DNA of 34,554 bases, taken from Candidatus Bathyarchaeia archaeon (GTDB taxonomy: Archaea; Thermoproteota; Bathyarchaeia; Bathyarchaeales; Bathycorpusculaceae). The stretch is from the NCBI GenBank assembly GCA_038883715.1, contig JAVZLS010000014.1, positions 1 through 34,554 of the forward strand. The letters are read 5' to 3'. Every line of letters begins with the position of its first letter. Position 1 is the stretch's first letter. Position numbers and translations under genes: made by a program. The notes below the pieces were generated by a model that searched no databases, was not told the DNA's origin, and saw only the letters and a list, made by a program, of their open reading frames with translations. Positions 1,142 through 30,776 of the stretch are shown here, piece after piece.

Positions 1142-2995
1142 TTATTTTCTATAAAGCTTTTCAAGTTGCGCCGCAACGTCTTCGAGTCCAACTTCTTTTA
1201 ATTTCCTCTTTGTTGGGATACCCCTTTCATTCCAGCCTCTTGCCGCATAATAGTCCTTAAGTAGTATATCCAGCTCAAAAATTTGTCCTTCCGATGGTTT
1301 TCTTGGCACGGGTTCTTTCAATATTCTTTCCGGCAGGGTGTCGTAGCTTCCATCGATCCCTTCTCTAATGTTGAAGGCTCTTTCAATATTGAATATTCTT
1401 TCGCCGACAAGCCATAGATAATCTGGTGACTTAAATTCTTCAATGCCCGTTGCTGCATACAAAAGCTTGCTGTAGAGCTCCATAGTTATCATAAGATTGG
1501 TGAGTGGGAATTGGCAGAAAATGGCTGTTTCTGCAACTGCAAATTCGTCTTGAACCTTCTTTGTTAGTTGCGCCTTACCCTCAACACTAAATGGGTCAAC
1601 TCTTTCCGGAACCCCTATAATTTCATAGCTGTTCCATCCAATGGTGTGGCTTGCCCCTATAGGCGAAGTTGCCAGGCTTAAGCCGTGGGCTTTTGCCGAC
1701 CTGGGGTCGTAGGCTGGCGGCTCTAAACCTTTCACGTGCATGGCGTATTTCTCTGCTCCTCTGCCTATTATTTCGGCGGCTTTTCTAACACCCTCCGCTA
1801 AAATGTTTCCTATGCCTATTCGCAGGGCTATCCTTCTGACCATTTCAGGGAGGATTTCAGGGTCGCCCCAGCGGAGGCCCATTCCGTCGGTTTCGCTTTT
1901 GCCAATTATTCCTTTTTCATACAGTTCGATGGCGAATCCTATGGCTACTCCGGTTGATATGGTGTCCAAGCCATAAGAGTCCGCTAACATGTTGGCATAT
2001 TCAATAGACTCGATGTTTATGTTGCCTAGGTTTCCACCAAAAGCCCAGTGGGTTTCATATTCTGGCATCTCCCACGCCAGTCCTGCATAGGGGCCTTTGG
2101 TTAGTTTGAAGGTTTTCCAGCATCTCATCATGCAGCCAAAGCATCCTTTGTGCGCTATGACATAGCGTCCCAGCTCTTCCGGACGGAATCTTTCAACGCC
2201 TTCAAGCTCTTTTTGCTTTAAATTGTATGTTGGAAAATGACCTAAAGTATAGAAGAGGTAAACTATTCCGTCAGTCCCTAAGCTGCGGAACCCCTCCAAT
2301 GCTGGGTTACTTTTGTAAGTGTCTATCTGTTCCTTAACCGCTTCATCAAAGGCGTCTTGATCGTATATTTTTGGCCTTTTCGAGCCTTTGACAACTACGG
2401 CTTTCAAGTTTTTGCTTCCCATGACGGCCCCTCCACCGCCCCTAGAAGCCGTTCTAATGTCGTCTGTGACTATTGCGGCTAGTTTGACAAGTCTCTCTCC
2501 GGCGGGACCTATCATGGCTATTCTGGCATTTTTGTCAGTTTCTTCCAAAAGAAATTCCTTGGCGGCGTTTGTGGTCATGCCCCAAGCCTTTTCAGCGTCT
2601 CTAAATTCGATATTGCCACCGTTAATCCAGAGGTAAACTGGTTTTTGGGCTCTTCCTTCAATTATTATGGCGTCGTAGCCTGCAAATTTTAATTCAGCTC
2701 CGAAAAATCCCCCGCCGACGCTTCTAAAGTATGTTCCAGTTAGTGGAGATTTAAACTGTGCAATCCATCTGCTTGCAGACTGAACTTTAGTGCCAGCCAA
2801 TGGTCCCACGGTGAATACAAGTTTGTTTTCAGGTGATAGTGGATCTACTCCGACAGGTGTTTCGCTCCACAATATCCAAGCGCCGTAACCTCTTCCCCCT
2901 ATGAACCTTTTGATTACATTCATGTTCAGAGGTTCCATTGTCGCCTTTCTGTTTGTTAGGTTTATCCTTAAACTTTGGCCCATATAGCCATACAT
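1142..2995 (-). CDS. aor: Tungsten aldehyde:ferredoxin oxidoreductase family protein (copy 1)
   Basis: GYMGQSLRINLT, GGRG, KSPLTG, GAVMGSKNLKA, CFGCMMRC plus distal FCQF Fe-S ligands, PEYET, DSYGLDTIS; SD GGAGGG at 3003-3008. Confidence 0.95.
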   Translation of the reverse strand: MYGYMGQSLRINLTNRKATMEPLNMNVIKRFIGGRGYGAWILWSETPVGVDPLSPENKLVFTVGPLAGTKVQSASRWIAQFKSPLTGTYFRSVGGGFFGAELKFAGYDAIIIEGRAQKPVYLWINGGNIEFRDAEKAWGMTTNAAKEFLLEETDKNARIAMIGPAGERLVKLAAIVTDDIRTASRGGGGAVMGSKNLKAVVVKGSKRPKIYDQDAFDEAVKEQIDTYKSNPALEGFRSLGTDGIVYLFYTLGHFPTYNLKQKELEGVERFRPEELGRYVIAHKGCFGCMMRCWKTFKLTKGPYAGLAWEMPEYETHWAFGGNLGNINIESIEYANMLADSYGLDTISTGVAIGFAIELYEKGIIGKSETDGMGLRWGDPEILPEMVRRIALRIGIGNILAEGVRKAAEIIGRGAEKYAMHVKGLEPPAYDPRSAKAHGLSLATSPIGASHTIGWNSYEIIGVPERVDPFSVEGKAQLTKKVQDEFAVAETAIFCQFPLTNLMITMELYSKLLYAATGIEEFKSPDYLWLVGERIFNIERAFNIREGIDGSYDTLPERILKEPVPRKPSEGQIFELDILLKDYYAARGWNERGIPTKRKLKEVGLEDVAAQLEKLYRK

Positions 2996-6532: not shown

Positions 6533-7873
6533 CTATGCCTTCGTAAGGGTTATTGCTTTGGCTGGGCAGACCATAACGCATAGTCCACAGCCAATACATC
6601 TATCTGAAACTTTCACAGTTTCGTTTTCCATGTAAAGCGCAGTGCATATGTTGTCGATGCACGTCTTGCACAACGTGCACTTTGCCGGGTCCACTTGAGC
6701 TCTTGCCTTAATGTCAACGGCCGCGTCGGCGGTTCTAAGATGTTCAATTCCTTCTTTCCGCATTTCTTCTATGCTGCTGTAACCTTGTTCGTCCATGAAT
6801 TTTCTGATAAACTCTAACTCTGACTTTAGGAGGCGTATGCCCTTAAAGAATATAGCTGCGCACTGTCCGGTGGCTTTTGCACCCAACATTATCATTTGGA
6901 TGACATGTTCTGCGTTCATTATGCCTCCCATGGCGAGAACATCCAATTCTGGAACATACATGCTGAGGGCTGCCACATGCTTGCGTATTATAGGTCTTAG
7001 TGGTTCGCCACCATATCCAATGAATGGATTTCCATCGGTGAAGGGCAGCGTTGTTTTCCCTCCATTGTAGATGTCTGGCGGAGGAACTGTTACACCCATG
7101 TTTGCCGTCGTGATAAAGGAGGCGCCTGCCTGTTTCACACGCCTGCCAATCTCCACAACCCTTGGAAAGCCAGTTTCGGGAGTAAGCTTAACCCCCACTG
7201 GAATGCTTACTGCTCGAACAACCTCTTTAACCACTTTCTCTAAGAATTCTGGCGAATCACCCATGATTGCGCCCATGTTTGAGAATATGAATTTTCCCTC
7301 TAGGAAAGCGTCGATGTTCCCCTTTACAGTGGCGAAAAACGGACATGAAACATTCAGCTCAATCATGTCAAAGCCAACTTCTTCCGCCTTTTTGGATGCT
7401 ATGGCGAAGGCTTCAGGGTCAGCGGCAGCTTCAATGTTAGCGATTAGGGGGACGTCTGGAGGCTTTTTTTCTTGCAACATTTTAATTATTGGCAATTTAA
7501 GCTCCAGAGATTTTGCAAAACCTTCGATGGGGATGCCGTAAGGTCCCATTGCACCTAACCTGTGAAGGAAGGTTCCCTCCCCATCTTTCATCCATCGTCT
7601 TACAGGCTCTCCGCCAAAATACTTCCTTATGATTCGTCGCCACTCCTCCGCTTCAACTTCCTTCTTCTTCCTTTGAACGAATTCCTCCGGCATGTGGCCG
7701 AGGGCTCCCACTGAAATATATCCAGCTCCGGCATCGGTGGACTTAAGGAGTATTTTGGCAACCATCTCGTCTGGAATTGCTCTCCCCATAAAGGTTGCAA
7801 TGGCTCCAACCCCAATTGGTGATGGAAGCGTTACTCCCGCAAAATTAACACTTAATTTATCATCTCTCTTCAT
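6533..7873 (-). CDS. Divergent dihydropyrimidine/dihydroorotate dehydrogenase-family flavoprotein (PreA-like) with C-terminal 2x[4Fe-4S] domain
   Basis: LSVNFAGVTLPSP, IELNVSCP catalytic loop, VKLTP, GYGG, AMGGI; C-terminal CTLCKTCIDNIC and CIGCGLCVMVCP. Confidence 0.85.
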   Translation of the reverse strand: MKRDDKLSVNFAGVTLPSPIGVGAIATFMGRAIPDEMVAKILLKSTDAGAGYISVGALGHMPEEFVQRKKKEVEAEEWRRIIRKYFGGEPVRRWMKDGEGTFLHRLGAMGPYGIPIEGFAKSLELKLPIIKMLQEKKPPDVPLIANIEAAADPEAFAIASKKAEEVGFDMIELNVSCPFFATVKGNIDAFLEGKFIFSNMGAIMGDSPEFLEKVVKEVVRAVSIPVGVKLTPETGFPRVVEIGRRVKQAGASFITTANMGVTVPPPDIYNGGKTTLPFTDGNPFIGYGGEPLRPIIRKHVAALSMYVPELDVLAMGGIMNAEHVIQMIMLGAKATGQCAAIFFKGIRLLKSELEFIRKFMDEQGYSSIEEMRKEGIEHLRTADAAVDIKARAQVDPAKCTLCKTCIDNICTALYMENETVKVSDRCIGCGLCVMVCPAKAITLTKA

Positions 7874-7947
7874 TTTTCAACCACCTAGCAGGTTGAAGGA
7901 ATTAGGAAGTTATAAAGAATTATATAAAGATTCTTTAAAGCTGGTGG

Positions 7948-9771
7948 CTAGATGTCAAGATCTTTCAATTTCCGCTCTGATGGGACGCCTTCAGACGTCC
8001 ATCCTCTGAGCTCATAATATTCCCTCATCATTAAGTCCATATCTGGAACATGCCGAAGGGTGCCGCCGTCTTGAGGTTCCAAAAATCTTTTCGGAAGTAC
8101 ATCATCCTTCGAGGAGATTCCCCATCTGCAATTAAGAATTCTTTTAAGGTTGAATGATCTTTCCCCGGTTTTCATGAACTCGTCTATGCTCATCGCTCTG
8201 CCAGTAACCAACTCGTAGAACCTTAAGAGCTGTGTAAGTGTCAGACCAGCCGAGGATGCATATTTGCAGACCACTAGTAAGTCGTAAACCTCCATCATGT
8301 CCTGCATCTTCTTAACAAGGAAGGCTTTACTTCTCGACTCAAACCTGTCAGTTTGCACGGTTATGCCAATTTCTGGAACCAGTCTCCCCCTATCCGGGTT
8401 GTGGGGCCACGCAAGGTGACATGCACCCCTATTCATTGTGGCATAACTTAATGCTTGACCGAAAAAGGCTCTGGGATTGTGTGCCGGCGCCTCTAACCCT
8501 TTTACGTGCAGGGCGAAGGCTTCGCTCCCCTTACCTAACCTTTTAGACGCTTCCCGCACCCCTTCAGCCAGTAAGTCCCCCACGCCCTTTCTATTTGCTA
8601 TAAGCTCTATCAGTTTCAGTATGTTTTCAGACGGGCCCCATCTAAGTTCCAGTCCTCCAGTATCCTCTTTTGTTATAATTCCTTTCTCATATGCTTCTAT
8701 TGCAAATGCTATAACCCCGCCAGTTGATATTGTATCCATTCCTAGACGGTTACAGAGGTCATTTGCCTTCGCGATTAGCGAAAGGTCGTCATTAAGCAGG
8801 TTTGAGCCCAACATGCATAAGGTTTCAAACTCTGGGCCATCCGCCCTAAGATTTGTATATTTTCCTTCTTTTATGTGCACTGTTCTTTTGCACCCAATAA
8901 CACAGTTGCAGCAAGGAGTCACTTTATCCAAAATTGTTTCTGTTATCCTTTTACCACTAATTTTCTCTATTTTGTCCTCTTCCCAGACGCCCTCGCTGTG
9001 ATTTTTTATCGGAATGTTGCCCATGTAATAGTAGGCTTCCATTCCGCCTCCCGTGCCGAATTTGCGGAGGCCTTGAGCGGCAGGATTTTTTGACAGTTGA
9101 GTTTGAACCTCTGCTGCAAATTTTTTAAGTTCCGCTTCCTTTGCGACTGAAATTTTCCCTGTTCCTTTAACGGCGATTGCCTTCAAGTTTTTAGAGCCCA
9201 TAACTGCGCCTATTCCAGCTCTGCCAGCCTTTCCAACATCACAAATTATGGATGCATACTTCACTAAGTGTTCGCCAGCGGGCCCAATAGCAGCTATTTT
9301 AACCGCCTTGTCTCCAAGCTCGCCTTTAATAATCCAGTATGTTTCATAAACGTCCTTGCCCCACAGTTTTTCGGCGTTTCTAAATTCAACTTGGTCATCA
9401 TTTATCCATAGGTATTTGGGCTTTTCCGCCCTACCCATAATTATGACTGCATCGAACCCTGCCTTCTTTAAGTGTTGTCCAAACATTCCTCCGGCATGGG
9501 ACTCTCCCCAAATTCCCAGCGGGGACCTAGCGCATATAGAAAGCCGCCCGCTAGACGGTGTTGGGGTGCCCGTTAATGGCCCCGTGGCAAAGATAAGCAA
9601 AGATTCAGCATCTAATGGGCCTATTTCGCTGGGCATTTCGTCATAAATTATCTTTGCGGCTAGTCCTGAACCGCCAATGTATTTCTCTGCTATTTCGTTT
9701 GGGAGGTTTTCTATTGAGAAATTCTCATCCGTTAAGTTAACTCGCAAAATTTTCCCCATGTAACCGAACAT
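7948..9771 (-). CDS. aor: Tungsten aldehyde:ferredoxin oxidoreductase family protein (copy 2)
   Basis: GYMGKILRVNLT, GAVMGSKNLKA, CCNCVIGC, GPEFET, LGMDTIS, NRGACH, distal LVVCKY. Confidence 0.95.
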   Translation of the reverse strand: MFGYMGKILRVNLTDENFSIENLPNEIAEKYIGGSGLAAKIIYDEMPSEIGPLDAESLLIFATGPLTGTPTPSSGRLSICARSPLGIWGESHAGGMFGQHLKKAGFDAVIIMGRAEKPKYLWINDDQVEFRNAEKLWGKDVYETYWIIKGELGDKAVKIAAIGPAGEHLVKYASIICDVGKAGRAGIGAVMGSKNLKAIAVKGTGKISVAKEAELKKFAAEVQTQLSKNPAAQGLRKFGTGGGMEAYYYMGNIPIKNHSEGVWEEDKIEKISGKRITETILDKVTPCCNCVIGCKRTVHIKEGKYTNLRADGPEFETLCMLGSNLLNDDLSLIAKANDLCNRLGMDTISTGGVIAFAIEAYEKGIITKEDTGGLELRWGPSENILKLIELIANRKGVGDLLAEGVREASKRLGKGSEAFALHVKGLEAPAHNPRAFFGQALSYATMNRGACHLAWPHNPDRGRLVPEIGITVQTDRFESRSKAFLVKKMQDMMEVYDLLVVCKYASSAGLTLTQLLRFYELVTGRAMSIDEFMKTGERSFNLKRILNCRWGISSKDDVLPKRFLEPQDGGTLRHVPDMDLMMREYYELRGWTSEGVPSERKLKDLDI

Positions 9772-9839
9772 ACTCGCTCACTACGTTAGTTCAGTAACTT
9801 TGATAGGGCGAGTTTTGGACTTGTTTAACGTGCTTGTAT

Positions 9840-10208
9840 TCACTTTTTGGCTCTCTGTCTAATGGATTTCTCGTCTCCAGGCGGAGTATAAACCCATAGA
9901 AATTGGAGTTCCTCTTCGCCGGCATTTTCAAGAGTGTGAATCTCGTTGGGAGCTAAGTAGACAACGTCGCCGGGCTCCAATATTTGTTGATCATTTCCGC
10001 TTGAAACCTTAGCCTTCCCCTTAAGTATGAAGATTGTCTCCTCGCCTGTATGAGCATGAGAGGCACCTTTCTCTCCAGCAGGGTACATTGTAAAGCCCAT
10101 TGCTACATGTTTTGACCCAATAACAGGATCCATCATTATTTTAGTCACTTTCCTTGATGGTGGCGGCGCCGGGAAAACCGGAGCGCTTTCTTTTCTGACA
10201 ATTATCAT
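9840..10208 (-). CDS. Monocupin domain protein
   Basis: Cupin metal motifs HAHTGEETIFILKG and PGDVVYLAPNEIH; SD GGAGG. Confidence 0.9.
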   Translation of the reverse strand: MIIVRKESAPVFPAPPPSRKVTKIMMDPVIGSKHVAMGFTMYPAGEKGASHAHTGEETIFILKGKAKVSSGNDQQILEPGDVVYLAPNEIHTLENAGEEELQFLWVYTPPGDEKSIRQRAKK

Positions 10209-10221
10209 TTATCTTCCTCCA

Positions 10222-11037
10222 TTATTTTTCAAGCGGTGAGACTCCCGGGGGATATTTTGATTTAAGTTCTTCTATGAATTCGCAGAGTTTGTTAACAACG
10301 GCATCCACTATTTTCTTCCCTTTCTCCTTGGTTGCCTTTGTTGCGTCTCCTAAAATTCCCAGCTTGTAAACGTCAACTTGGAAATAGGAGTGGGTAATGT
10401 TGTGGCCTGGAAAACCCCCTTCTTCAGGTAAGCCGGTTGGGCCTCCATACCATTTCTTATCAATGATGCTGGGCGCTTTTTCTTTGCCAGCTTTGCCCAT
10501 ATCCACAAGCTCTGGGTAAAGTTCCAAGGCCACGGATGTTTCAGCCTCGTCAGCATGAACAAACGGGGTTTCACAAACCTCGCTTATTGTTTTCCTTATG
10601 AGCTCCCACCATGTGGCAACGGCTATAAACGCCTTTGTTTCCAACGCCAACTCGTGGAGAGCCCCGACATAAACCCACTGTTGACCGTGCGCATTAAGTA
10701 TTATTATCTTCTTGAAGCCGTTATTGACCAGCCCTGTTACAACATCCTTCACAAACTGTTTAAGCACATCAGACCTTATTGGAACGGTTCCCGGAAAACC
10801 ATATTGCATATACATGTGGGCGCCATACCATATCGGAGGAGCCACCAGCACTCCTGTTTTCTCTGCAACCCGCTCTGCAATTTTCTGGGCGTTTAATGAG
10901 TCCGAACCAACTGGGCAGTGGGGCCCATGCATTTCTATTGAGCCGACGGGCAGCAGAATTATGTCGCATTTTTTAGCTCTTTCAACTATTTCTGGCCAAC
11001 TCAGTTCATGGTACCAGACGCTTTTCTTTTTAGGCAT
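10222..11037 (-). CDS. Creatininase-family metallohydrolase resembling IolN (3-dehydro-scyllo-inosose hydrolase)
   Basis: PVGSIEMHGPH...D, PIWYG, FPGT, LNAHGQ (Q where creatininases typically have HGGN), TPFVHADEAETS, GILGDATKAT. Start moved to ATG 11037 (SD GGAG). The IolN likeness is from recollection of family motifs. Confidence 0.85.
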   Translation of the reverse strand: MPKKKSVWYHELSWPEIVERAKKCDIILLPVGSIEMHGPHCPVGSDSLNAQKIAERVAEKTGVLVAPPIWYGAHMYMQYGFPGTVPIRSDVLKQFVKDVVTGLVNNGFKKIIILNAHGQQWVYVGALHELALETKAFIAVATWWELIRKTISEVCETPFVHADEAETSVALELYPELVDMGKAGKEKAPSIIDKKWYGGPTGLPEEGGFPGHNITHSYFQVDVYKLGILGDATKATKEKGKKIVDAVVNKLCEFIEELKSKYPPGVSPLEK

Positions 11038-11051
11038 TTTCCGGTCTCCAA

Positions 11052-11975
11052 TCACTTTGGAATTGCCAAATCGCTTGCCCCTCTCCCGCTTTGAATAGCC
11101 TCTGGATAATACTTCTTAACTGTGCGAACAACCAGCACGGCTTGGAGGGCCATGTTCACTCCTTCCGCCTTGGTTGTGGGAACGCCGTGACTTACAAGCG
11201 CTGAATTGCCGGTCTTAAGGTTTATTGGTGCTCCTACTCTCACCATCTCTGGCGCCTCATAAGTTCTAAGCATTCCGCCCGTTGATTTGGGATTGTCTAC
11301 ATGTATGTCGATTGGTACTTTAACTGTCTGCCTTATAGCCGCAATCATTGGTAGCGTAAGGTCTCTGACGGGGTTTATGGAGTCTGCTCCTAGCATTTCC
11401 AAGACTTTAAATGAGACCGGGTTTCCATGGCCGCAGTGGGCTGAAAGCTTAAACTTTGTGTCTTTAGGGATTTCCTCATCCTTCCGCATCTGGTTAAGCA
11501 GCCACAATAAACCTTCATCATAAACCAGTATCCCCCTAACCCCCATTTCCGTAACCCTTTTCACATCTTCAACAGCCCTAACCACCTGCTCCATTCCTCG
11601 AAGCCTATAGCCAATCCTGCCAGCCTCAAAGGTGCCAGTCGCCCTCTGGGGGCTTAAATCATATGTAGCTCTTGGACCAACTGACAAGTTGAGTTCCACT
11701 TTGTACTCCTTTGCCAGTTCAATGTATTCTTCAAGTTCCTCGTCCGTGTGGCGCATAATCCCCAAAGTTTCGTCAATCCTATTCACCACAACTCCATACT
11801 GCTCAGCGGTCTCAAGAACAGCCCGCATAGTTTCCGCTGAATTAACCGTTGGAACCTCAATCCTAAACTGTGCGCCATCAGGAAATCTGAGCTTAGATTC
11901 CGGAAGTTCATAAAGGTCGTGATCTGGAAAACCCAATTTTCTCAAATATGCCCTCGTTTTTTCTCCAACTAGCAT
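11052..11975 (-). CDS. U32-peptidase-like TIM-barrel protein lacking the Fe-S cysteines; function unknown
   Basis: RFPDGAQFRIEVP, GILVYDEG and GADSINPVRDLTL..I..IR..V.VPIDIHV resemble the U32 core; only one Cys in 307 aa; SD GGAGG. Confidence 0.7.
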   Translation of the reverse strand: MLVGEKTRAYLRKLGFPDHDLYELPESKLRFPDGAQFRIEVPTVNSAETMRAVLETAEQYGVVVNRIDETLGIMRHTDEELEEYIELAKEYKVELNLSVGPRATYDLSPQRATGTFEAGRIGYRLRGMEQVVRAVEDVKRVTEMGVRGILVYDEGLLWLLNQMRKDEEIPKDTKFKLSAHCGHGNPVSFKVLEMLGADSINPVRDLTLPMIAAIRQTVKVPIDIHVDNPKSTGGMLRTYEAPEMVRVGAPINLKTGNSALVSHGVPTTKAEGVNMALQAVLVVRTVKKYYPEAIQSGRGASDLAIPK

Positions 11976-12079
11976 TTGGGCGATCCTCCATGTTAGTTTT
12001 GGATAGGTTATAAAAATGGGCCGTGTATTTATCCCTTATGGAGTAAATTTGAATTGATGAAGAATGCCTTTTACAATAT

Positions 12080-13132
12080 TCAAATCTTCGGTAAGAGGAA
12101 GGAAATCTGAAGCTCTTTAGCTATATTTTTCAACGCAATTAAAACTTCATCATCCAATGGTATCCCGAGCCTGTTTCTCTGCAAAGCTTCAATCATCTCT
12201 ATCTCACCAGGCAAGAATATCTCACTAATCCCCCTCTTCCTTGGACACGACTTTATCTCCTTCACATACTCTAAAATGGCATCCTTATACTCGTGATAAG
12301 GCCTGAAAAATTCGATATTTATTGCCTCTATAAATGCGCCTGTTCCAGACGGCCCGCTGAAGTCGTTGAGTTCCTTAATTTTCCATCCAAAATTTGAACC
12401 GATAAGTAACCCACATAATATATCAACTGAAAGGGCTAACCCGTATCCTTTTGGGCCTCCAATGGGAACGAGCGACCCTTTAAGTGCGGCTTTGGGATCC
12501 GTTGTTGGGTTTCCCTCTTCGTCAAGGGCCCATCCTTCAGGTATTCTTTCGCCTTTTAATGCGGCCAGTCTTATCTTTCCGCGTGCAACAACACTTACAG
12601 CCATATCTAAAATTATTGACTCTTCGTTGCCGCCCATTGGAAAGCCTATGCAGATGGGATTTGTTCCAAACATGGGGTTTATTCCTCCCCAAGGGGCGAT
12701 GGCTGGAGGCCCGTTCGACAAAACTATCCCTATCAGTTTTTGCTCTGTCAGTTTCATGACATAGTGGGCGGCCATACCGAAATGATTAGAGTTTTTAACA
12801 GCAACAACACCGACTCCAAGTTTCTTTGCTTTTTCGGCTGCGAGGAAAGCTGCCTTCATGGCTGCAACTTGACCAAAATTGTTGTGGGCATCTATCAATG
12901 CAACGCTTCCTTGATCCTTCACCACCTTAATTGGTGCTGATGGGTCGATGAGGCCCTCCTTCACCCTTCTTATGTATACGGGTAGTCTTGCAACGCCGTG
13001 GGAGTCTATTCCCCTGAGGTTTGCTAGAACAAGATTTTCAGCAACTATCGCTGCGTCTTTCTCCTTCACTCCCACGTGTTTTAAGGCTTCTAAACTAAAT
13101 TGGAATAAATCTTCAGCCTTAATCCTTATCAA
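12080..13132 (-). CDS. Ldh2-family (ComC/AllD/YiaK-type) 2-hydroxyacid dehydrogenase
   Basis: ANLRGIDSHG, NSNHFG, GTNPI, ILDMA, GGPKGYGL, LPGE. Confidence 0.93.
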   Translation of the reverse strand: MIRIKAEDLFQFSLEALKHVGVKEKDAAIVAENLVLANLRGIDSHGVARLPVYIRRVKEGLIDPSAPIKVVKDQGSVALIDAHNNFGQVAAMKAAFLAAEKAKKLGVGVVAVKNSNHFGMAAHYVMKLTEQKLIGIVLSNGPPAIAPWGGINPMFGTNPICIGFPMGGNEESIILDMAVSVVARGKIRLAALKGERIPEGWALDEEGNPTTDPKAALKGSLVPIGGPKGYGLALSVDILCGLLIGSNFGWKIKELNDFSGPSGTGAFIEAINIEFFRPYHEYKDAILEYVKEIKSCPRKRGISEIFLPGEIEMIEALQRNRLGIPLDDEVLIALKNIAKELQISFLLPKI

Positions 13133-13251: not shown

Positions 13252-14445
13252 GTGCCGGGTGTAAGAGACAAAGTAGCAATAATTGGCATGGGATGCACAA
13301 AGTTCGGCGAGCACTGGGACAAGGGCGTTGGAGACTTAATTGTTGAGGCCTGTTATGAAGCTTTTGAGGATGCTGGGATAGAGCCTAAGGATGTTCAAGC
13401 TGCATGGCTTGCCACAGCATGGAGTGGAGAATTGGGTCGAACTTTGGCCTATCCTCTTAAAATAGGTTTCATTCCTATCACGAGGGTTGAAAATAGATGC
13501 GCCAGCGGACATGACGCTTTCATAAATGCGTGTTACGCAGTGGCATGCGGCGCATTTGACCTTGTGTTGGTTTGTGGAGCTGAAAAGATAAAGGATACCG
13601 GGCTTCCAATTCCAGGCGATTATAATCCAACAACCCTGTATACCAGCAGGGTGGATACAGGCTTTCTGCCCGTGACGGCGTGGGCTATGTTTGCCCTAAG
13701 ATACTTCTATCACTACGACATACCGGTTGAGGATGGCAGAAGAATCTTGGCTAGGATAGCCGTTAAAAACCACTTTAATGGTTCGCTGGCTCCTAAGGCT
13801 CAATTCCGCCGCAAAATAACCATTGAAGACGCCTTAAAGGCTCCAATCATTGCGTGGCCTCTTGGCCTTTACGATTGTTGCGGGATAGCAGATGGTGCAG
13901 CAGCCGCCATACTCACCAGAGCTGAGTTGGCCAAAAACTACAGGGACGATTATGTGATTGTTAAGGGGGTGGGCATGAGCGCGGGCATGTATCAGGGCCA
14001 AGTTATGGATGATTTCCCTCTTGTTCATGTGGAGGAGAACGTTCGGGCTTCAAGGATGGCCTACGCCGAGGCGGGAATAAAGAACCCGAGGAAGGAGTTG
14101 GACTTAGCAGAGGTTCACGACTGCTTCACGATTCATGAACTTGTCATTTATGAGGACTTGGGGTTTTCTCAAAGAGGTAAGGCAAAAGAAGATTTGGAAA
14201 ACGGCGTCTTCGATTTGAAAGGCGAACTTCCAGTCAATGCTGACGGTGGCCTTAAGTGCTTTGGTCATCCACTTGGAGCCAGCGGAATAAGGATGATATA
14301 TGAAGTTTACAAGCAACTTCAAGGAAAAGCTGACCAACGCCAAGTTGAAATAAGGAATCAAAGGGGGCTCACGCACTCATGCGGCGGCACTCCTGTGGAT
14401 TCGCATACCGCTGCTGTGGCAATACTTGGTTTGAGGGGAACATAA
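13252..14445 (+). CDS. Thiolase (SCP2/archaeal-type acetyl-CoA acyltransferase), catalytic subunit
   Basis: VAIIGMGCTKFG, VENRCASG (catalytic Cys), AEVHDCF, GGLKCFGHPLGASG; GTG start with SD GGAGG. Confidence 0.93.
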   Translation: MPGVRDKVAIIGMGCTKFGEHWDKGVGDLIVEACYEAFEDAGIEPKDVQAAWLATAWSGELGRTLAYPLKIGFIPITRVENRCASGHDAFINACYAVACGAFDLVLVCGAEKIKDTGLPIPGDYNPTTLYTSRVDTGFLPVTAWAMFALRYFYHYDIPVEDGRRILARIAVKNHFNGSLAPKAQFRRKITIEDALKAPIIAWPLGLYDCCGIADGAAAAILTRAELAKNYRDDYVIVKGVGMSAGMYQGQVMDDFPLVHVEENVRASRMAYAEAGIKNPRKELDLAEVHDCFTIHELVIYEDLGFSQRGKAKEDLENGVFDLKGELPVNADGGLKCFGHPLGASGIRMIYEVYKQLQGKADQRQVEIRNQRGLTHSCGGTPVDSHTAAVAILGLRGT

Positions 14446-15855
14446 ATGGTTGGAGTAGTCTCTTACGGTGCCTACATCCCCATATGGAGAATGAACCGTG
14501 AACTTTTAGGCAGAGGCCTTCCAGGCGAGAGATCTGTAGCTGGCAAGGATGAGGACAGCCTAACCATGGCTGTTGCAGCTTCGATCAACTGCCTAGAAAA
14601 CATTAATCGCGAGCATATTGACGGCGTCTTCTTCGCCTCAACAACATCGCCGTTTAAGGAAAAATGCGTGGCCAGCACTATCGCTGCTGTTTTAGATCTC
14701 CGCCGCGACATCTTCACAGTAGATTTTGCTAACTCAATTAGGGCTGGAACAAGCGCTTTAAAAACCGCGCTGGGCATGGTTAAGGCTGGAATGGCTCGGC
14801 AAATACTAATCGCAGCGGCTGACTGTCGCTTGGGCGCTCCGGGATCAACATTTGAACAAAGTTTCGGCGATGGCGCCGCCGCCCTCCTTGTTGGAAAGGA
14901 GAATTTGATCGCTGAATTCGAGGGGGACTACTCCATTTCAGACGAGATATACGACGTTTGGAGAAGGGATATAGACCTATACGTTAATTCTTGGGAAGAC
15001 CGCTTCATCTATTTGCATGGCTATCAAATGGTTGTTAGTGAGACTGTTGCTGGTTTTATGAGAAAGGCTGGAGTGGATCCAAAGGACATAACAAAGGCTG
15101 TTTTGCCAGCTCCAGACGCACAGAGGGCTGAAGCCTTGGCTAAAAGCCTAGGGTTTGACCCTAAAACACAACTTCAAGATTCCTTAATCGATAGGGTTGG
15201 TAACACGGGGGCAGCCCAACCATTAATGCTTTTTGCTGCCGCCTTAGAAGAGGCTAACCCATACGATAAGCTTCTTTTAGCCGGTTATGGTAATGGAAGC
15301 GACGTTTTCATGTTCAAGACAAGCGAGAACTTAAGGAAAATAGACGTTAAAAGGCGTGGAGTGAAGGCAAACATTCAAAGGAGAAAGATTGTGCCAAATT
15401 ACGCTACATACCTTATGTGGCGCAAACTTGTTCAAATGCCGGGTCCAAGAGCACCCATGTCTGTCTCTTATCCCGCTGCAACATCCATATGGAGAGAGCG
15501 CAAACGCATATACCCGCTCTATGGAGTTAAATGCAAGGTTTGCGGCACGGTTCAGTATCCACCACAGCGGGTTTGCATAAAATGCGGAACAAAAGACACT
15601 TTTGAAGATGTAAAGCTTAGCGGTGGAAAGGGGAAGCTTTTCTCCTACTCTTTTGATTTCATAAGGGGAAACGTGCCCATAGGTCTCGTTAACCTCGAAG
15701 GTGGAGGAAGAATATTCGTTGAATTAACAGACGTAGACCCTGAAGAGCTAAAAATAGATTTGCCAGTTGAGCTAACCTTTAGAAGACTTGATTTGTGGCG
15801 TGAAGACGGCATATACGGCTACTTCTGGAAAGCAACGCCGATAAGAATCCCATAG
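14446..15855 (+). CDS. HMG-CoA-synthase-like domain fused to Zn-ribbon/OB-fold (DUF35); probable thiolase accessory subunit
   Basis: GVVSYGAYIP, DEDSLTMA, GDGAAA, VGNTG; the catalytic Cys position reads NSIRAG. C-terminal CKVCG...CIKCG followed by an OB fold ending YFWKA. Abuts the thiolase stop (TAA-ATG). Confidence 0.88.
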   Translation: MVGVVSYGAYIPIWRMNRELLGRGLPGERSVAGKDEDSLTMAVAASINCLENINREHIDGVFFASTTSPFKEKCVASTIAAVLDLRRDIFTVDFANSIRAGTSALKTALGMVKAGMARQILIAAADCRLGAPGSTFEQSFGDGAAALLVGKENLIAEFEGDYSISDEIYDVWRRDIDLYVNSWEDRFIYLHGYQMVVSETVAGFMRKAGVDPKDITKAVLPAPDAQRAEALAKSLGFDPKTQLQDSLIDRVGNTGAAQPLMLFAAALEEANPYDKLLLAGYGNGSDVFMFKTSENLRKIDVKRRGVKANIQRRKIVPNYATYLMWRKLVQMPGPRAPMSVSYPAATSIWRERKRIYPLYGVKCKVCGTVQYPPQRVCIKCGTKDTFEDVKLSGGKGKLFSYSFDFIRGNVPIGLVNLEGGGRIFVELTDVDPEELKIDLPVELTFRRLDLWREDGIYGYFWKATPIRIP

Positions 15856-19984: not shown

Positions 19985-21292
19985 ATGTTGAATAAGAACG
20001 CTATCACTAAGGTGCAAGCAGCAATAATCGCAGTCATAATCATTGTTGCAGCCATAGTGGGGGTAGTAGTATACTTTTACACTCTTCCGGGGGCTCCACC
20101 ACCGCCTAAGGACTACATACTCATCGGGTGTGTTCAATCTCTGAGCGGCCCTCTTTCCCCGCAAGTCACCATGTATCATTGCTATTATAGATGGATTATT
20201 GAAGATTACAATGCTACAGGCGGACTTTATGTCCCCGAGTATGGCAAGAAATTACCAATCAAATACAAAGAGTACGACGACGAGACCGACATCAATAAAA
20301 TGCTTACATATACTGAAAAACTCATAACGGAGGACAAAGTGGATCTCATCTTCGCACCGTGCAGTACGGGCTTTTGCTATGCGGCTTTTTCACTCTATGA
20401 GCAGTATCATTACCCAGTGGTTGCTTTGACGTACGGCTCAGACATAGGAGCAGAAAAAATGAGGAGTGGCCAGTGGAAATATAGTTTCCACACGCTTGCT
20501 ACCCCATCTGAAGTGGGTGAACAAGTCCGCGAATTGATAGAGTATGTAAATGCAACCAAATCGCGTATCACTAGCATTGGCATTCTCCATCATATGGATC
20601 AACATGGAGTAGAACACGGTGCAGCCATATACCGTGAGCTTACAATCAGAGGATTTCCCGTCCAGGTTTATCAAAGCTATCCCTTCATGGAAACAAATTT
20701 CAAACCGCTAATATCAACATTGAAAAATGCAGGCGTCTACGATGTTGTGATTGTGGCGGGCTACGAGGCAGCTGCCTTTGTAAGGGATTGCATGGCTGAA
20801 AACTACAACCCAAAGATGATAATAACCGGCCCGTCACTTGAAGCCCCAGGAATGACATTCGGCCCTCTTGGTTTCACACTAGAACAAGTTAAGGGAATAG
20901 TCTTCTACGACGGCTGGCCATCCTCAGCCTACAACACCCCCGAACTACAAGAGTGGGCAGAAAAACATAAAATACGATCATATTCAATCTATGGCAACTA
21001 TTATGGTTACCCCTTCCCAGCGTCAGGCGTATTCTACGCAGGTCTCCAATGTCTCTTCGAAGCAGTTCAAAAGGTTGGTCTCGATAGGGACAAGATAGCA
21101 GAAGCGCTTAGAACGCAGTACTTTGACACCATTTTAGGAAAGATGAAGCTCCGACCCGGCTACGCTCCGGATTGCGAATTGGCAGGAACCATAACCCAGT
21201 GGCAAAACAGACTCATGATGGAAGTTGTCTGGCCTCTAGAAGCCAAATCAGCAGATCTAATCTATCCGAAACCAGAATGGCCACCACCTTAG
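19985..21292 (+). CDS. ABC transporter substrate-binding protein, LivJ/K (HAAT) family
   Basis: N-terminal hydrophobic anchor, IG...SLSGPL, YDDET, EKLITEDKVDLIFAP, TQWQ...VVWP...YPKPEW; precedes the two permeases. Confidence 0.9.
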   Translation: MLNKNAITKVQAAIIAVIIIVAAIVGVVVYFYTLPGAPPPPKDYILIGCVQSLSGPLSPQVTMYHCYYRWIIEDYNATGGLYVPEYGKKLPIKYKEYDDETDINKMLTYTEKLITEDKVDLIFAPCSTGFCYAAFSLYEQYHYPVVALTYGSDIGAEKMRSGQWKYSFHTLATPSEVGEQVRELIEYVNATKSRITSIGILHHMDQHGVEHGAAIYRELTIRGFPVQVYQSYPFMETNFKPLISTLKNAGVYDVVIVAGYEAAAFVRDCMAENYNPKMIITGPSLEAPGMTFGPLGFTLEQVKGIVFYDGWPSSAYNTPELQEWAEKHKIRSYSIYGNYYGYPFPASGVFYAGLQCLFEAVQKVGLDRDKIAEALRTQYFDTILGKMKLRPGYAPDCELAGTITQWQNRLMMEVVWPLEAKSADLIYPKPEWPPP

Positions 21293-21333
21293 GAACCAAG
21301 CGGTTCATGGCAATGCTTGCGGGGGCGACGTAG

Positions 21334-22194
21334 CTGCTAGATATAATCGTTGGGGGCGCCCTCTTAGGGGCATTGTATTCATTGTTTGCCGTCGGCCTCA
21401 ACATTCAATACGGAGTCACTAGAATACTAAACTTGGCCTACGGAGAACTTCTAATGATCGGCGCCTATATATCCTACTTTTTTTTCGATTCTTATGGCAT
21501 TAACCCGCTAGTCACACTTGTAATGAGCGGACTTATCGCCTCTATTTTAGGCATAATAATTCAAATAGTTGTTTTTAGAAGGCTAATCTTTTTGTCCAAA
21601 TCTGGAGCAGAGCTTGAATTTAGATCACTCTTAGCCTGTTTCGGCCTCATATACATAATTCAGAACCTTCTTGCCCAGATTTTTGGCACAACCCCCATAG
21701 GTATGCCATATCTTATGGAGGGAGTAGACATACTTGGAGAGAGATTCAAACTAAACATGGTAGTGGCAGCAATTATGTCCATAATCATCAATGCAATAAT
21801 GTATGTTTTTATACGCTTTACAAGACTCGGTCTAGCCATGAGAGCCACAGCTGAAGAGCCAGCAGGAGCGCAGCTTGTAGGAGTAAACATTTTGAAAATT
21901 CATGCGGCATCATTCAGCCTAGGCTGTCTTGCGGCCGCCCTGGCTGGTTCAATGTTGTGCATGATTTACCAAAACCTAAATCCGTATTCAGGAGCACAAT
22001 ATACCTTAATTGCTTTAATAATACTTGTTCTGGGTGGCAGGGGAAGCTTTCTTGGAAGCGTGATTGGAGGGTTTATAGTAGGGTACACATATTACGCTTT
22101 TCTGAGAACGATACCATCGCTGGCTGTGCCAGCGGTTTACATTCTCCTCATTTTAATATTGGTTGTAAGGCCTAAGGGGATTCTTGGGAGGTAG
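21334..22194 (+). CDS. livH: ABC permease, LivH family
   Basis: GLNIQYGVTRILNLAYGE, TRLGLAMRA, A.LVGVN, VLGG.GS. LivH TM1 (LDIIVGGALLGALYSLFA) extends upstream of the track's TTG 21373 to a CTG at 21334, so the start is uncertain. Confidence 0.88.
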   Translation: MLDIIVGGALLGALYSLFAVGLNIQYGVTRILNLAYGELLMIGAYISYFFFDSYGINPLVTLVMSGLIASILGIIIQIVVFRRLIFLSKSGAELEFRSLLACFGLIYIIQNLLAQIFGTTPIGMPYLMEGVDILGERFKLNMVVAAIMSIIINAIMYVFIRFTRLGLAMRATAEEPAGAQLVGVNILKIHAASFSLGCLAAALAGSMLCMIYQNLNPYSGAQYTLIALIILVLGGRGSFLGSVIGGFIVGYTYYAFLRTIPSLAVPAVYILLILILVVRPKGILGR

Positions 22195-22198
22195 AGCC

Positions 22199-23221
22199 TT
22201 GCCGGAAAGCAGGAAATTAAACTTAAAATGGCACCATTTAGTTTTGGCGGCAATCACTTCAATAGTTATTGTTTTATTGGCTTTGGCGCCTCTCTCCTTA
22301 GGACACTACTACCTATCAGTTATAAGAACAACTCTCATGTGGGCAGCTCTAACAATGAGCTGGTATTTCTTTTCAGGTCTTACGGGATATATTTCGTTGG
22401 GATCTACCGCCTTTTTTGGTACAGGACTATATTTCACAGCTCTATATCTAAATTTTAGCGTCATAGAGGGACGCTGGCCAGAATTACCTTTTCCAGTTAT
22501 TGTACTTATGGCAGGACTACTAAATTTTGGATTCGCTTTCGTTCCAGGCCTAATATCATTGAGGCTTAGAGGCATTTATTTTGCAATCGCCACTTTTGCG
22601 TTAGGTATGGCGTGTCAAGGCATATTTGACTATCTTGTGACAAATGTTATGGGCACTTATTACACTCATATTCCTTCTTTTAACCCTCAAATGAAGTATT
22701 ATTCAATGCTAACAACAACGATTGCTGTTTTTCTAATAATCTTTCTCCTATGCAAATCCAAGCTTGGCCTCGCTTTAAAAATGATAGGTGAAAATGAAGA
22801 GGCTGCAGTGCACTTAGGCGTAAACGCTAACTTAGTTAAAACTTTGGGGTTTGCGATAAGCGCCATGTGCATGGGTTTTGTGGGAAGCAGTTACGCTATA
22901 ATATTTCCAGTTACAGGTCCAAAACTCGCCTTTGACCTAAAATACTCTTTTCTTCCCGCAATAATGGCGATGTTCGGCGGAATTGGAACAAGCTATGGTC
23001 CCTTAGTTGGGGCTGTTGCATTGTCTTTGCTTAATGAGTATCTCGGCGTTACTTTAGTTCATTACTTTTTAATAATCCTCGGAGTGATAGTGATAATTAT
23101 TGCTGAATTAATGCCTGAAGGAATCGTTGGATTTGCCAAAAAGATGGTTGTAAAATATTCTAGAGGAAAACAGCAAGGCTTGCCGGAAGAAAAGTCTAAA
23201 GGCCTAAAAACGCCTCTTTAA
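22199..23221 (+). CDS. livM: ABC permease, LivM family
   Basis: GYISLG..AFFG.G.Y, LRLRGIYFAIAT, IGENEEAA..LGVN, GGIGT.YGP. Start TTG 22199 after SD GGAGGT. Confidence 0.9.
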   Translation: MPESRKLNLKWHHLVLAAITSIVIVLLALAPLSLGHYYLSVIRTTLMWAALTMSWYFFSGLTGYISLGSTAFFGTGLYFTALYLNFSVIEGRWPELPFPVIVLMAGLLNFGFAFVPGLISLRLRGIYFAIATFALGMACQGIFDYLVTNVMGTYYTHIPSFNPQMKYYSMLTTTIAVFLIIFLLCKSKLGLALKMIGENEEAAVHLGVNANLVKTLGFAISAMCMGFVGSSYAIIFPVTGPKLAFDLKYSFLPAIMAMFGGIGTSYGPLVGAVALSLLNEYLGVTLVHYFLIILGVIVIIIAELMPEGIVGFAKKMVVKYSRGKQQGLPEEKSKGLKTPL

Positions 23222-23900
23222 CATACTTGTTTTTTAAGAGTTCTTCGCCCCTCCCCTGTAAAGTTACTTTTCCCATTTCCATCACATAAGCCTTCTCGGA
23301 AACTTTCAAAGCGTAGTAGACATTCTGCTCAGCCACAAGTATGCTGAGCCCGCGTTTCCTCAGCTCTTCCACAGCCTTAAATATCTCAATGGTCAGCTTT
23401 GGCGACAGACCCTGCGAAGGTTCATCCAATATAAGTAATTCTGGATTGGACATTAAGCCACGTGCGATGGCAAGCATTCTCTGCTCTCCACCGCTAAGTG
23501 TTACAGATAGCTGTTTTTCCCTTTCCTTTAAAACTGGAAAGAGTTGATACACCATATTTAATGTGTCCTTTTCCGAAGCTTTTCCCTTAGAGCCATAGGC
23601 TCCTAAGAGAAGGTTCTCCCGTACCGTCATGTAGGCAAAAAGTTTTCTGTCGTCGGGCACAAAGGATATTCCTAAATTCACAATTCGGTATGGCGGTAGT
23701 CCGTCAATTCTTTTACCATTAAATTTAATTGTACCGGATGATGGTTTAAGAAGCCCAGCCACTGTGCTAAGAAGTGTGGTTTTTCCAGCTCCATTTGCAC
23801 CTATTAGGGATACGGCTTCCCCTTTTCCAACGCTGATTGAAACATCCCATAGGATCTGCATGTTTCCACGTAGTACGTTTAGGTTGTTAACCTCTAACAT
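23196..23900 (-). CDS. livF: ABC ATPase, LivF family
   Basis: MLEVNNL, GANGAGKTT, LSGGEQRMLAIARGLM, LDEPSQGL. Start reassigned to ATG 23900 (SD GGAGG). Confidence 0.93.
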   Translation of the reverse strand: MLEVNNLNVLRGNMQILWDVSISVGKGEAVSLIGANGAGKTTLLSTVAGLLKPSSGTIKFNGKRIDGLPPYRIVNLGISFVPDDRKLFAYMTVRENLLLGAYGSKGKASEKDTLNMVYQLFPVLKEREKQLSVTLSGGEQRMLAIARGLMSNPELLILDEPSQGLSPKLTIEIFKAVEELRKRGLSILVAEQNVYYALKVSEKAYVMEMGKVTLQGRGEELLKNKYVKEAFLGL

Positions 23901-30647: not shown

Positions 30648-30776
30648 GCTTTTGCCTCTCTTCTTTTAGAAGCTGTCTGGCTTTAAAGAACTTTTTATGG
30701 TTGGTAGCGGATACATCAAGTTTAAATTTGCCGAAAATTGTATAGGGATTTCAACTCGAAAAGAGGTTTGATAAGT

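Follow-up and report, generated by a model that had tools for sequence, protein, structure and literature searches.

An archaeal gene set joining an IolN-like hydrolase, a cupin, an aldehyde:ferredoxin oxidoreductase and a U32-like TIM barrel, with a possible role in ring opening

The 34,554-nt stretch of DNA analysed here (the window; contig JAVZLS010000014.1) is contig C14 of a Bathyarchaeia genome of 1.33 Mb in 41 contigs that is ~90% complete. A first-pass annotation made from the sequence alone had picked out six co-directional genes at 6533–13132 as an unassigned block that might specify a new ring-opening pathway. Comparison with related loci shows that this block is a four-gene core, coding for a U32-like TIM-barrel protein, an IolN-like creatininase-family hydrolase, a small cupin and an aldehyde:ferredoxin oxidoreductase (AOR), together with an Ldh_2-family dehydrogenase; a PreA-like flavoenzyme is an optional member. 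The genes may encode a catabolic module in which a redox entry step is followed by hydrolytic opening of a cyclic 1,3-dione, probably with a six-membered carbon ring, and breakdown to small acids, a reading that we put forward tentatively. Hydrolytic opening of cyclic diones is already known, cyclohexanedione hydrolases also acting in this way, and what appears to be new is this combination of enzymes. The description of the genes as unassigned has held up: they co-occur across genomes, and the literature searched contains no description of the gene set, including the AOR–cupin pair and the U32-like TIM barrel, and nothing on a gallate reductase or on IolN relatives in anaerobes, most subscription journals and the older work on anaerobic quinate and shikimate fermentation being outside its coverage.

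Conservation of the gene set

Loci related to the window were drawn from three sources: 12 loci from species-representative genomes; the hit regions of four further genomes of the phylum and of 12 of the 14 matching Clostridia genomes; and 80 metagenome-contig loci from a metagenome scan with an alignment of 12 U32-like sequences. The 109 loci with a U32-like gene reduce to 102 with distinct U32-like DNA (seven were dropped as duplicates of six others), and the counts given below cover the 71 of these 102 that have at least 5 kb of total flank, the other 31 being omitted. Loci were screened by tblastn (E ≤ 1e-8, at least half of the query covered) with the window proteins and with proteins identified by Pfam in sister loci, and a core locus is one that has hydrolase, cupin and AOR genes no more than 10 kb from the U32-like gene.

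The core set is present in 23 of the 71 distinct loci, which are spread over Bathyarchaeia, other Thermoproteota and bacterial-type contigs. The Ldh_2 gene lies beside it in 22 of the 23, often on the opposite strand; in L021, the exception, one of the two flanks is only 1.8 kb long. AOR and cupin genes are adjacent in 21 of these loci, hydrolase and cupin genes in 15, and U32-like and hydrolase genes in 12, although gene order and strand vary widely (the window compared with L010, L023, L057, L061, L072, L090 and L095). The grouping of the core families is beyond chance, and the retention of the set while its order is shuffled argues for one pathway. The families of the six-gene block first described thus do co-occur in other genomes, but the recurrent unit is the four-gene core with Ldh_2, and the PreA-like gene is found in only 6/23 loci.

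Several loci (L072, L074, L090, L095 and the L084–L091 group) are co-directional arrays of AOR, cupin, U32-like and Ldh_2 genes with either a nitroreductase and a small protein or zinc-type alcohol dehydrogenases (Zn-ADHs), and all of these arrays but L074 contain an IolN-type hydrolase. Fumarate hydratase and malic enzyme genes are also present in L074, L084, L087, L089, L090 and L095, the core loci L095, L090, L084, L087 and L089 continuing co-directionally into them. In the two loci checked, L095 (419 bits) and L045, the fumarate hydratase scores 419–429 bits against a cut-off of 276. Among the 23 core loci, a Fumerase gene lies within 10 kb in nine and a malic enzyme gene in five. The U32-like gene is followed directly by Fumerase and Fumerase_C genes in seven of nine Pfam-scanned Clostridia loci (L042–L046, L049 and L050) and a malic enzyme gene comes next in six of those seven, often with PrpD, Ldh_2, and tricarboxylate or TRAP transporter genes further on; L011 begins likewise (U32-like, Fumerase, Fumerase_C). 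On the strength of these shared arrays, the archaeal core and the bacterial U32-like/fumarase/malic enzyme operon belong to a single larger scheme.

Among 401 sampled genomes of the phylum, only 5, the source genome included, carry the U32-like gene, as do 14 of 399 Clostridia genomes scored; one match is 86% identical and comes from a genome listed only as 'same phylum'. The patchy occurrence and this close match give the set the look of a horizontally moving accessory module. The block could even be a mobile or accessory island that gathers redox and hydrolase genes, with no single pathway and only the U32-like and Ldh_2 genes linked. Such an island would account for the bare U32-like/Ldh_2 pairs of gut-type contigs (L102–L115), the differing settings of the U32-like gene (near PrpD, CitE-like lyase and ATP-grasp genes in polysaccharide clusters, and next to a glycyl-radical enzyme gene in L096), a transposase fragment inside L009, and the TATA-like elements that suggest three transcripts in the window. 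It is an improbable reading, however, as the five families remain grouped in 23 loci despite many rearrangements and in more than one domain, and form single co-directional arrays with short gaps in L072, L090, L095 and L084–L091.

Organization of the genes in the window

The six predicted genes are all on the minus strand, at the coordinates first annotated. The core unit begins with the U32-like TIM-barrel gene (11052–11975; 307 aa; partial Pfam U32 match of 24.7 bits), followed by genes for the IolN-like creatininase-family metal hydrolase (10222–11055, with a likely start at the ATG at 11037; Pfam Creatininase, 212 bits), a small metal-type cupin (9840–10208; 122 aa; Cupin_2, 66 bits) and a tungsten-type AOR (7948–9771; 607 aa; AFOR_N, 263 bits, and AFOR_C, 445 bits, both full length). 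The Ldh_2-family 2-hydroxyacid/2-oxoacid dehydrogenase gene (12080–13132; 350 aa; full-length Ldh_2 match of 413 bits) lies upstream, and the gene for the PreA/dihydroorotate dehydrogenase (DHOD)-like flavoenzyme with a C-terminal 2x[4Fe-4S] domain (6533–7873; 446 aa; DHO_dh, 56.8 bits, and Fer4) lies downstream.

The hydrolase open reading frame begins at a GTG and overlaps the U32-like stop by 4 nt, and the ATG at 11037 leaves a 14-nt spacer after that stop. In five of ten other loci checked the first hydrolase start found is 15–19 nt past the U32-like stop, at 15–16 nt for the ATG of L004, L007 and L054 (MPKSVWY) and the TTG of L021 and at 19 nt for the TTG of L009; the ATG at 11037 is the most likely start. 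With it, the spacing of about 14 bp reported for this part of the block is reproduced, at 14 nt between the U32-like and hydrolase genes and 13 nt between the hydrolase and cupin genes. The remaining gaps are 68 nt (cupin–AOR), 74 nt (AOR–PreA-like) and 104 nt (Ldh_2–U32-like).

TATA-like elements are present where they had been noted before. A candidate archaeal promoter of the core unit, TTTTATAA (12008–12015), lies 33–40 nt upstream of the U32-like ATG with a GGAGG (11989–11985) between the two, and a candidate separate promoter (7910–7928), composed of TTTATATA (7928–7921) and TTTATAA (7916–7910), lies upstream of the PreA-like ATG at 7873. An AT-rich stretch is situated ahead of Ldh_2 in a 119-bp divergent spacer shared with a thiolase gene. 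This arrangement suggests three transcription units, consisting of Ldh_2; the U32-like, hydrolase, cupin and perhaps AOR genes; and the PreA-like gene. In four of four hot-spring runs compared there is an extra C after 7877, within the non-coding leader upstream of the PreA-like ATG.

The IolN-like hydrolase

The window hydrolase is specifically IolN-like, beyond the level of its paralogues in the same genome. Its best NCBIfam model is IolN (NF041098; 215.4 bits, against 136 for creatininase and 101 for MftE), whereas the two creatininase paralogues on contigs C4 and C2 score 106 and 97 bits with IolN and match MftE best (138–141 bits). Hydrolases of the bacterial-type operons (L011, L072, L087, L095 and L096) score 485–541 bits with the IolN model, above its cut-off. 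The Creatininase (PF02633) match spans profile positions 1–238, and alignment with creatininase 1j2t shows that the window protein retains Glu and His in 'EQHG', Asp in 'NVD' and His in both 'NGH' and 'IEHGG', residues which we take to be the binuclear metal ligands and the catalytic His. Creatininase Glu122 (the Glu after 'NGHY') is Gln in the window hydrolase.

Most creatininase-family enzymes are amidohydrolases, and IolN, acting on a cyclic 1,3-diketone, is to our knowledge the only member that cleaves a C–C bond. We propose, from its resemblance to IolN, that the window protein is a ring-opening C–C hydrolase for a cyclic 1,3-dione.

PreA-like and alternative entry enzymes

The PreA-like protein scores 140.5 bits with the PreA equivalog model (NF006183), under the cut-off of 335. 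Its 'ELNVSCP' aligns with 'ELNLSCPH' of dihydropyrimidine dehydrogenase (DPD) and its 'TTAN' with DPD 'TATN', the motifs of the DPD/DHOD catalytic Cys and substrate-binding Asn, and the ferredoxin domain of DPD is matched by its C-terminal Cys motifs. The protein is an optional module, and we propose that it acts on the ring as a ferredoxin-linked ene-reductase.

The gene lies within 10 kb in the window, L006, L008, L009, L055 and L061, and other redox genes are found elsewhere. In four of the 23 core loci (L010, L072, L090 and L095) there is a nitroreductase gene followed by one for a ~150-aa small protein without a family match; between archaeal L010 and bacterial L011 the nitroreductases are 47% identical and the small proteins 25% identical (E 6e-11). 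Nine loci have Zn-ADH genes, counted only where the gene abuts the hydrolase gene or an AP_endonuc_2 TIM-barrel gene, and in the remaining four no PreA-like gene, nitroreductase set or abutting Zn-ADH was seen in the fetched DNA. A type I dehydroquinase gene is present in five of the 23; the L023 protein scores 180 bits with the aroD model, above its cut-off of 139, and the L087 protein 122 bits, below it, with 139 bits for Pfam DHquinase_I. An Old Yellow Enzyme (OYE)/BaiCD-like Fe-S flavoenzyme is encoded directly before the AOR in L087, the only locus of its type checked. The replacement of the PreA-like gene in other loci indicates that one pathway position is filled by different redox enzymes; some loci would use a ring or enone reductase there, and others a hydroxyl dehydrogenase.

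Elsewhere in the genome there is a second pair of nitroreductase and creatininase-family genes with a 14-nt overlap (C2:93858–95145; L002 876–2238), as well as a nitroreductase/CoA-transferase A/B trio (C15:6080–8376) that resembles part of L010; these may be pieces of an alternative entry module.

Two different chemistries could be read from these entry enzymes. The PreA-like motifs would suit catabolism of an N-heterocycle, in which the flavoenzyme reduces a pyrimidine-, orotate- or hydantoin-like ring, the hydrolase opens a cyclic amide as the amidohydrolases of its family do, and Ldh_2 and the cupin play the parts of AllD and ureidoglycine aminohydrolase, whose models are among their matches. 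The catalytic Cys and Asn motifs of DPD and DHOD are kept, a CN_hydrolase gene is present in one bacterial operon (L043/L076) and an Amidohydro_3 gene follows Ldh_2 in L023, and a route from orotate through aspartate and fumarate to malate would employ fumarase and malic enzyme. The matches of Ldh_2 to AllD (227 bits against a cut-off of 496) and of the cupin (36 against 200) are, however, at the level of the family only, and the archaeal loci scanned showed no aspartase, carbamoyltransferase, carbamate kinase or ureidopropionase. The scheme leaves the AOR without a role; the PreA-like gene is confined to its six loci, and the Zn-ADHs, dehydroquinase and AP_endonuc_2 barrels that replace it do not act on N-heterocycles. 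We regard this alternative as having little probability.

The loci with Zn-ADHs point instead towards a Thermotoga-type catabolism of cyclitols (inositol or methyl-inositol), in which Zn-ADHs would produce a diketo-inositol and a true IolN would convert it to 5-keto-L-gluconate, with the cupin and AOR, Ldh_2 and the TIM barrel replacing the IolO/UxaB/UxaA/Kdg steps. IolN is the best model for the hydrolase, with bacterial-type operon members exceeding its cut-off, and a Zn-ADH and an AP_endonuc_2 TIM barrel are encoded beside the hydrolase in L021, L023 and L057. For L021 and L023, IolM is one of the three best models of the Zn-ADH (199–205 bits), and IolO is the first or second of the AP_endonuc_2 barrel (68–82 bits). 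IolO has been described as the T. maritima 5-keto-L-gluconate 4-epimerase (PMC12632266). These IolM and IolO scores are far below the cut-offs (450 and 300), though, and threonine dehydrogenase models outscore IolM for the Zn-ADH. The Pfam-scanned loci showed no Gfo/Idh/MocA dehydrogenase, sugar kinase or KDG aldolase, and a C7 carboxylated ring accounts better for the dehydroquinase (5/23) and for the bona fide fumarase with malic enzyme downstream than a C6 cyclitol does. The window itself has neither a Zn-ADH nor an AP_endonuc_2 gene, and relatives elsewhere in the genome are only 24–33% identical. Cyclitol catabolism is thus rather unlikely, but it has to be kept in view.

Cupin, AOR and Ldh_2

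The closest solved relatives of the AOR are 9g7j and 1aor (421–422 bits, full length); the benzoyl-CoA reductase subunit BamB (4z3w) reaches 215 bits over residues 5–421 only, and GAPOR 44 bits. A dearomatising role of the BamB type was therefore rejected, the protein being closest to AOR proper. It is one of seven AOR paralogues in the genome, which are 32–40% identical to one another. Three of these are encoded in the window (1142–2995, 7948–9771 and 31301–33169) and the others on contigs C3, C6, C12 and C23; the gene at 31301–33169 overlaps the end of one for a 188-aa multi-[4Fe-4S] protein (30738–31304), like a two-subunit AOR.

We propose that the window cupin is a ketol isomerase feeding the AOR, which would explain the near-invariant pairing of the two genes. 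The Ldh_2 protein is below the cut-off of every NCBIfam equivalog, including sulfolactate dehydrogenase (328 bits against 500), AllD (227 against 496) and 3-dehydro-L-gulonate 2-dehydrogenase (161 against 316), and so cannot be placed with the named members AllD, ComC or YiaK.

The U32-like TIM-barrel protein

The match of this protein to Pfam U32 (PF01136) is slight, at 24.7 bits against a cut-off of 22.4, and is restricted to profile positions 5–90 of 233. An NCBIfam scan gave no match, and most homologues carry no precomputed Pfam match. Its 307 residues include a single Cys (C181), and there is no Cys among the invariant or near-invariant columns of a 40-sequence alignment, which makes an Fe-S cluster of the UbiU/V type unlikely. 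The family is large, with 5784 proteins at E ≤ 1e-3 among 8000 candidates scored and with 840 representatives of 50% clusters, 93 of them at E ≤ 1e-30. Identities of 63–88% to the window protein are seen across Bathyarchaeia and contigs labelled Verstraetearchaeota, Thorarchaeota, Theionarchaea, Firmicutes and Synergistetes.

An AlphaFold2 model (predicted local distance difference test score, 93.5) folds as a TIM barrel. Among solved folds, CutC (Z 16.5) and the U32 protein Mk0906 (Z 15.1) come nearest; class II aldolases and other barrels that bind pyruvate or oxo acids rank next (Z 13–14.6), and no match is clearly apart. Sequence searches of solved structures gave no match with the single sequence and only noise (E 0.035 or worse) with a profile, and the ESM Atlas returned 'peptidase U32' cluster names only and no structure. 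The residues conserved in the family (R140, R147, K176, R215, R237, K254, D33, E40, D153 and D223) are rich in Arg, Lys, Asp and Glu and would suit a polycarboxylate ligand.

Genes that lie within 10 kb of the U32-like gene include Ldh_2 (39/71 loci), the class I fumarase-type alpha subunit (31/71), PrpD-family genes (19/71), the PF15617-type C–C lyase (11/71) and the CitE-like lyase (2/71). In L070 the U32-like gene is placed between a PrpD-family gene and an RraA-like aldolase gene, and in L096 between genes for a glycyl-radical enzyme and an IolN-type hydrolase. On the basis of its partners and conserved residues, the protein is proposed to act on a 2-oxo or 2-hydroxy polycarboxylate as a lyase, hydratase or isomerase.

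Some further settings of the gene were seen. The L096 segment (6900–12949) codes for the glycyl-radical enzyme (PFL-like, 878 aa), the U32-like protein, the IolN-type hydrolase (485 bits) and an IclR regulator. In L047 and L048, both Pfam-scanned, the U32-like gene accompanies PrpD, a PF15617 lyase, a diverged fumarase pair and ATP-grasp ligases within polysaccharide biosynthesis clusters; such clusters also contain Ldh_2 or a D-2-hydroxyacid dehydrogenase, and L117, L118, L120, L122, L124, L126 and L130–L132 are similar, by tblastn matches only. These look like clusters for synthesis of an organic-acid substituent for an amino sugar. The bare U32-like/Ldh_2 pairs of L102–L115 (contigs labelled human gut or similar) are 55% and 40% identical to the window proteins; a Pfam scan of L103 showed no useful neighbours, its high G+C making the picking of open reading frames unreliable. 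One 585-aa protein (P0271), encoded on one contig, in which the N-terminal two-thirds (~334 residues) of an acetolactate synthase large subunit are joined to U32-like residues 53–299, was set aside as a probable truncation or assembly chimera.

Flanking genes and O-demethylation context

Two further groups of genes lie to the right of the block. A LIV-type ATP-binding cassette transporter is encoded by five genes (19985–24633), and the segment 24794–28834 contains genes for a URO-D-family methyltransferase, a B12-binding corrinoid protein and the RACo activator, which together make up a corrinoid O-demethylase set of bacterial type. Of 14 archaeal-type loci, 5 have parts of such a system beside the cluster, and in the window the distance is 12.8 kb. 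In L004–L007 and L054, Ldh_2 is directly followed by genes for RACo and an MtrH/MtgA-like methyltransferase; URO-D or corrinoid genes are also near the cluster in L074 and L090. The URO-D-family methyltransferase of the window carries a 240-aa N-terminal part without a family match, and an MtrH/MtgA-like partner is encoded at C1:95216–96121, 80% identical to its L006 counterpart.

In the window and in most Bathyarchaeia loci the cluster is flanked by genes for a CoA-transferase III, a hydroxyacyl-CoA dehydrogenase/enoyl-CoA hydratase fusion, a thiolase, and a fusion of HMG-CoA synthase (HMGCS) and DUF35. In the window, the thiolase gene and then, without a gap, the gene for the 469-aa fusion (an HMG-CoA-synthase/KAS-III-like domain, a DUF35-type zinc ribbon and an OB fold) occupy 13252–15855. 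HMG-CoA-synthase-like and DUF35 proteins are separate in other archaea, and the fusion is kept at 64–78% identity in sister loci. The nearest public-genome relatives of the window carry the label Bathyarchaeia, and DNA ~99% identical to this stretch recurs in runs with a hot-springs metagenome label.

Anoxic sediments and hot springs both harbour Bathyarchaeia in abundance. These archaea are reported to remove methyl groups from lignin-derived aromatics, with bacterial-type O-demethylase clusters present in 31 of 297 bathyarchaeial metagenome-assembled genomes (PMC10989822). The conserved and apparently horizontally spreading cluster, adjoining an O-demethylase set, a LIV-type transporter and CoA/beta-oxidation genes, is a concrete candidate for the missing ring-degrading step.

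A proposed pathway

In the catabolic module that we tentatively favour, the PreA-like enzyme (elsewhere the nitroreductase with its small protein, or an OYE-type enzyme) would reduce an enone or phenol tautomer to a cyclic 1,3-dione, or, alternatively, two Zn-ADHs in other loci would oxidise ring hydroxyls to the same end. The IolN-like hydrolase would then split a ring C–C bond, as IolN does, giving an open-chain acid ending in -CO-CH2OH. The cupin could isomerise this end to a hydroxy-aldehyde, and the AOR could oxidise the aldehyde to a carboxylate while reducing ferredoxin, which might in turn supply the ferredoxin-like domain of the PreA-like reductase. Ldh_2 would oxidise a 2-hydroxy acid to a 2-oxo acid for processing by the TIM barrel, our preferred guess being a C–C cleavage that releases pyruvate. 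In the bacterial versions a C4 dicarboxylate product would be converted to pyruvate by fumarase and malic enzyme.

The first-pass annotation had offered reductive dearomatisation of a resorcinol- or phloroglucinol-like ring, N-heterocycle catabolism and cyclitol catabolism. Judged from the gene content, the first is the best fit and is supported in part, by the IolN-like hydrolase, the O-demethylase neighbours and the exchanges in the reductase position; cyclitol catabolism stays alive and the N-heterocycle is the weakest of the three. One correction concerns the nature of the ring, because fumarase and malic enzyme in the bacterial versions suggest a carboxylated ring or a polycarboxylate product rather than resorcinol or phloroglucinol.

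A narrower version, which is unlikely in its particulars, is an oxygen-independent route for carboxylated hydroaromatic and polyphenolic rings, those of gallate (from O-demethylated syringate-type lignin units), 3-dehydroshikimate, shikimate or quinate. An ene-reductase (DHOD-like, nitroreductase or OYE) acting on 3-dehydroshikimate or on the keto tautomer of gallate would produce 4-hydroxy-3,5-dioxocyclohexanecarboxylate, or Zn-ADHs and dehydroquinase could deliver it from quinate or shikimate. The enone of either reductase substrate has its carboxylate on the beta carbon and may be seen as a carbocyclic analogue of orotate. After opening by the IolN-like hydrolase, the cupin and AOR would provide the third carboxylate, Ldh_2 would form 4-carboxy-2-oxoadipate or its 4-hydroxy form, and the U32-like TIM barrel would yield pyruvate and fumarate or oxaloacetate. 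This group of substrates would explain the dehydroquinase, the two ring dehydrogenases, the ene-reductases, the C4 plus C3 outcome and the nearby O-demethylase.

A number of observations weigh against the proposed module. The window hydrolase is below the curated cut-off for IolN (215.4 against 245 bits) and only ~31% identical to the bacterial IolN-type proteins, and since most members of its family are amidohydrolases, a ring with a C–N bond is a possible substrate. The window has no dehydroquinase, Zn-ADH or AP_endonuc_2 gene, and no dehydroquinase relative was found in the genome with the queries used; fumarase and malic enzyme lie outside the cluster in the window and most Bathyarchaeia loci. 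The conserved CoA-transferase and beta-oxidation-type flanks have no role in the scheme, which is a weakness. The fold matches of the U32-like protein are those of a generic TIM barrel (TM ~0.5) and uninformative on function. CitE-like or PF15617 lyases lie within 10 kb of its gene in 13 of the 71 loci and an RraA-like aldolase gene adjoins it in L070; given these other C–C lyases it may not be a lyase, and may be a hydratase, isomerase or decarboxylase instead. The census sees only families in the chosen query set, two related samples contributed six of the 23 core loci (L084, L086–L089 and L091), all of a single architecture, and Zn-ADH matches at 24–34% identity may be unrelated. Two runs labelled metatranscriptomic have flat contig depth and were flagged 'probably DNA'.

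If the narrower version is correct, Bathyarchaeia would gain the use of the ring carbon of lignin aromatics, beyond their methyl groups, and a protein family of thousands of members would receive its first function. More broadly, this large U32-like family without Fe-S cysteines has steady partners in Ldh_2, PrpD-family proteins, class I fumarase-type hydro-lyases and C–C lyases, which point to an unknown hydroxy/oxo polycarboxylic-acid chemistry in gut, digester and sediment anaerobes.

Comparison with known systems

The U32 family includes the Fe-S hydroxylation factors RlhA, TrhP and UbiU/UbiV, which have a conserved Cys set for a 4Fe-4S cluster. The U32-like protein shares the TIM barrel of peptidase U32 Mk0906 (PDB 5d88; Z 15.1, 18% identity) but, unlike the hydroxylation factors, it is without the conserved Cys set, and its partners are organic-acid enzymes rather than RNA or quinone modification genes.

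The lower pathway of protocatechuate 4,5-cleavage and gallate degradation employs 4-oxalomesaconate hydratase and the RraA-like 4-carboxy-4-hydroxy-2-oxoadipate aldolase, and there, as proposed for the cluster, a tricarboxylic 2-oxo acid is converted to pyruvate and a C4 dicarboxylate. An RraA-like aldolase and a PrpD-family gene flank the U32-like gene in L070, and tricarboxylate transporters and a PrpR_N-type regulator are present in sister loci. That pathway begins with an oxygenase, whereas the cluster is oxygen-independent and its ring opening would be hydrolytic.

The anaerobic phloroglucinol pathway of Clostridium scatologenes consists of PGR (a short-chain dehydrogenase/reductase), DPGC ('cyclase' family), TfD and TAL, a beta-keto-acid cleavage enzyme (PMC10470551). 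On that description its logic is similar, with reduction of a polyphenol to a cyclic dione, a metal-dependent retro-Claisen hydrolase, and oxidation and cleavage of the chain, but the families of its 'cyclase'-type DPGC, its PGR and its TAL are not in the cluster. The known phloroglucinol pathway was rejected as a candidate for the window, as families of the DPGC and PGR types described there are absent from the six genes and from the other 24 window open reading frames scanned.

A further close parallel is the inositol pathway of Thermotoga maritima (IolG, IolM, IolN and IolO), attributed to Rodionova et al. (2013, Environ Microbiol 15:2254). The window differs from it in having a hydrolase under the IolN cut-off and no IolG, IolM or IolO; the cupin, AOR, Ldh_2 and U32-like enzymes (accompanied in some loci by fumarase and malic enzyme) bear no relation to its hexuronate steps, and a flavo-Fe-S reductase is attached. 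Some sister loci, in turn, add an IolM-like Zn-ADH and an IolO-like TIM barrel. In both systems, reportedly so for the order of steps in T. maritima and as proposed from the genes here, a creatininase-family enzyme hydrolyses a ring C–C bond of a cyclic 1,3-diketone made by dehydrogenases.

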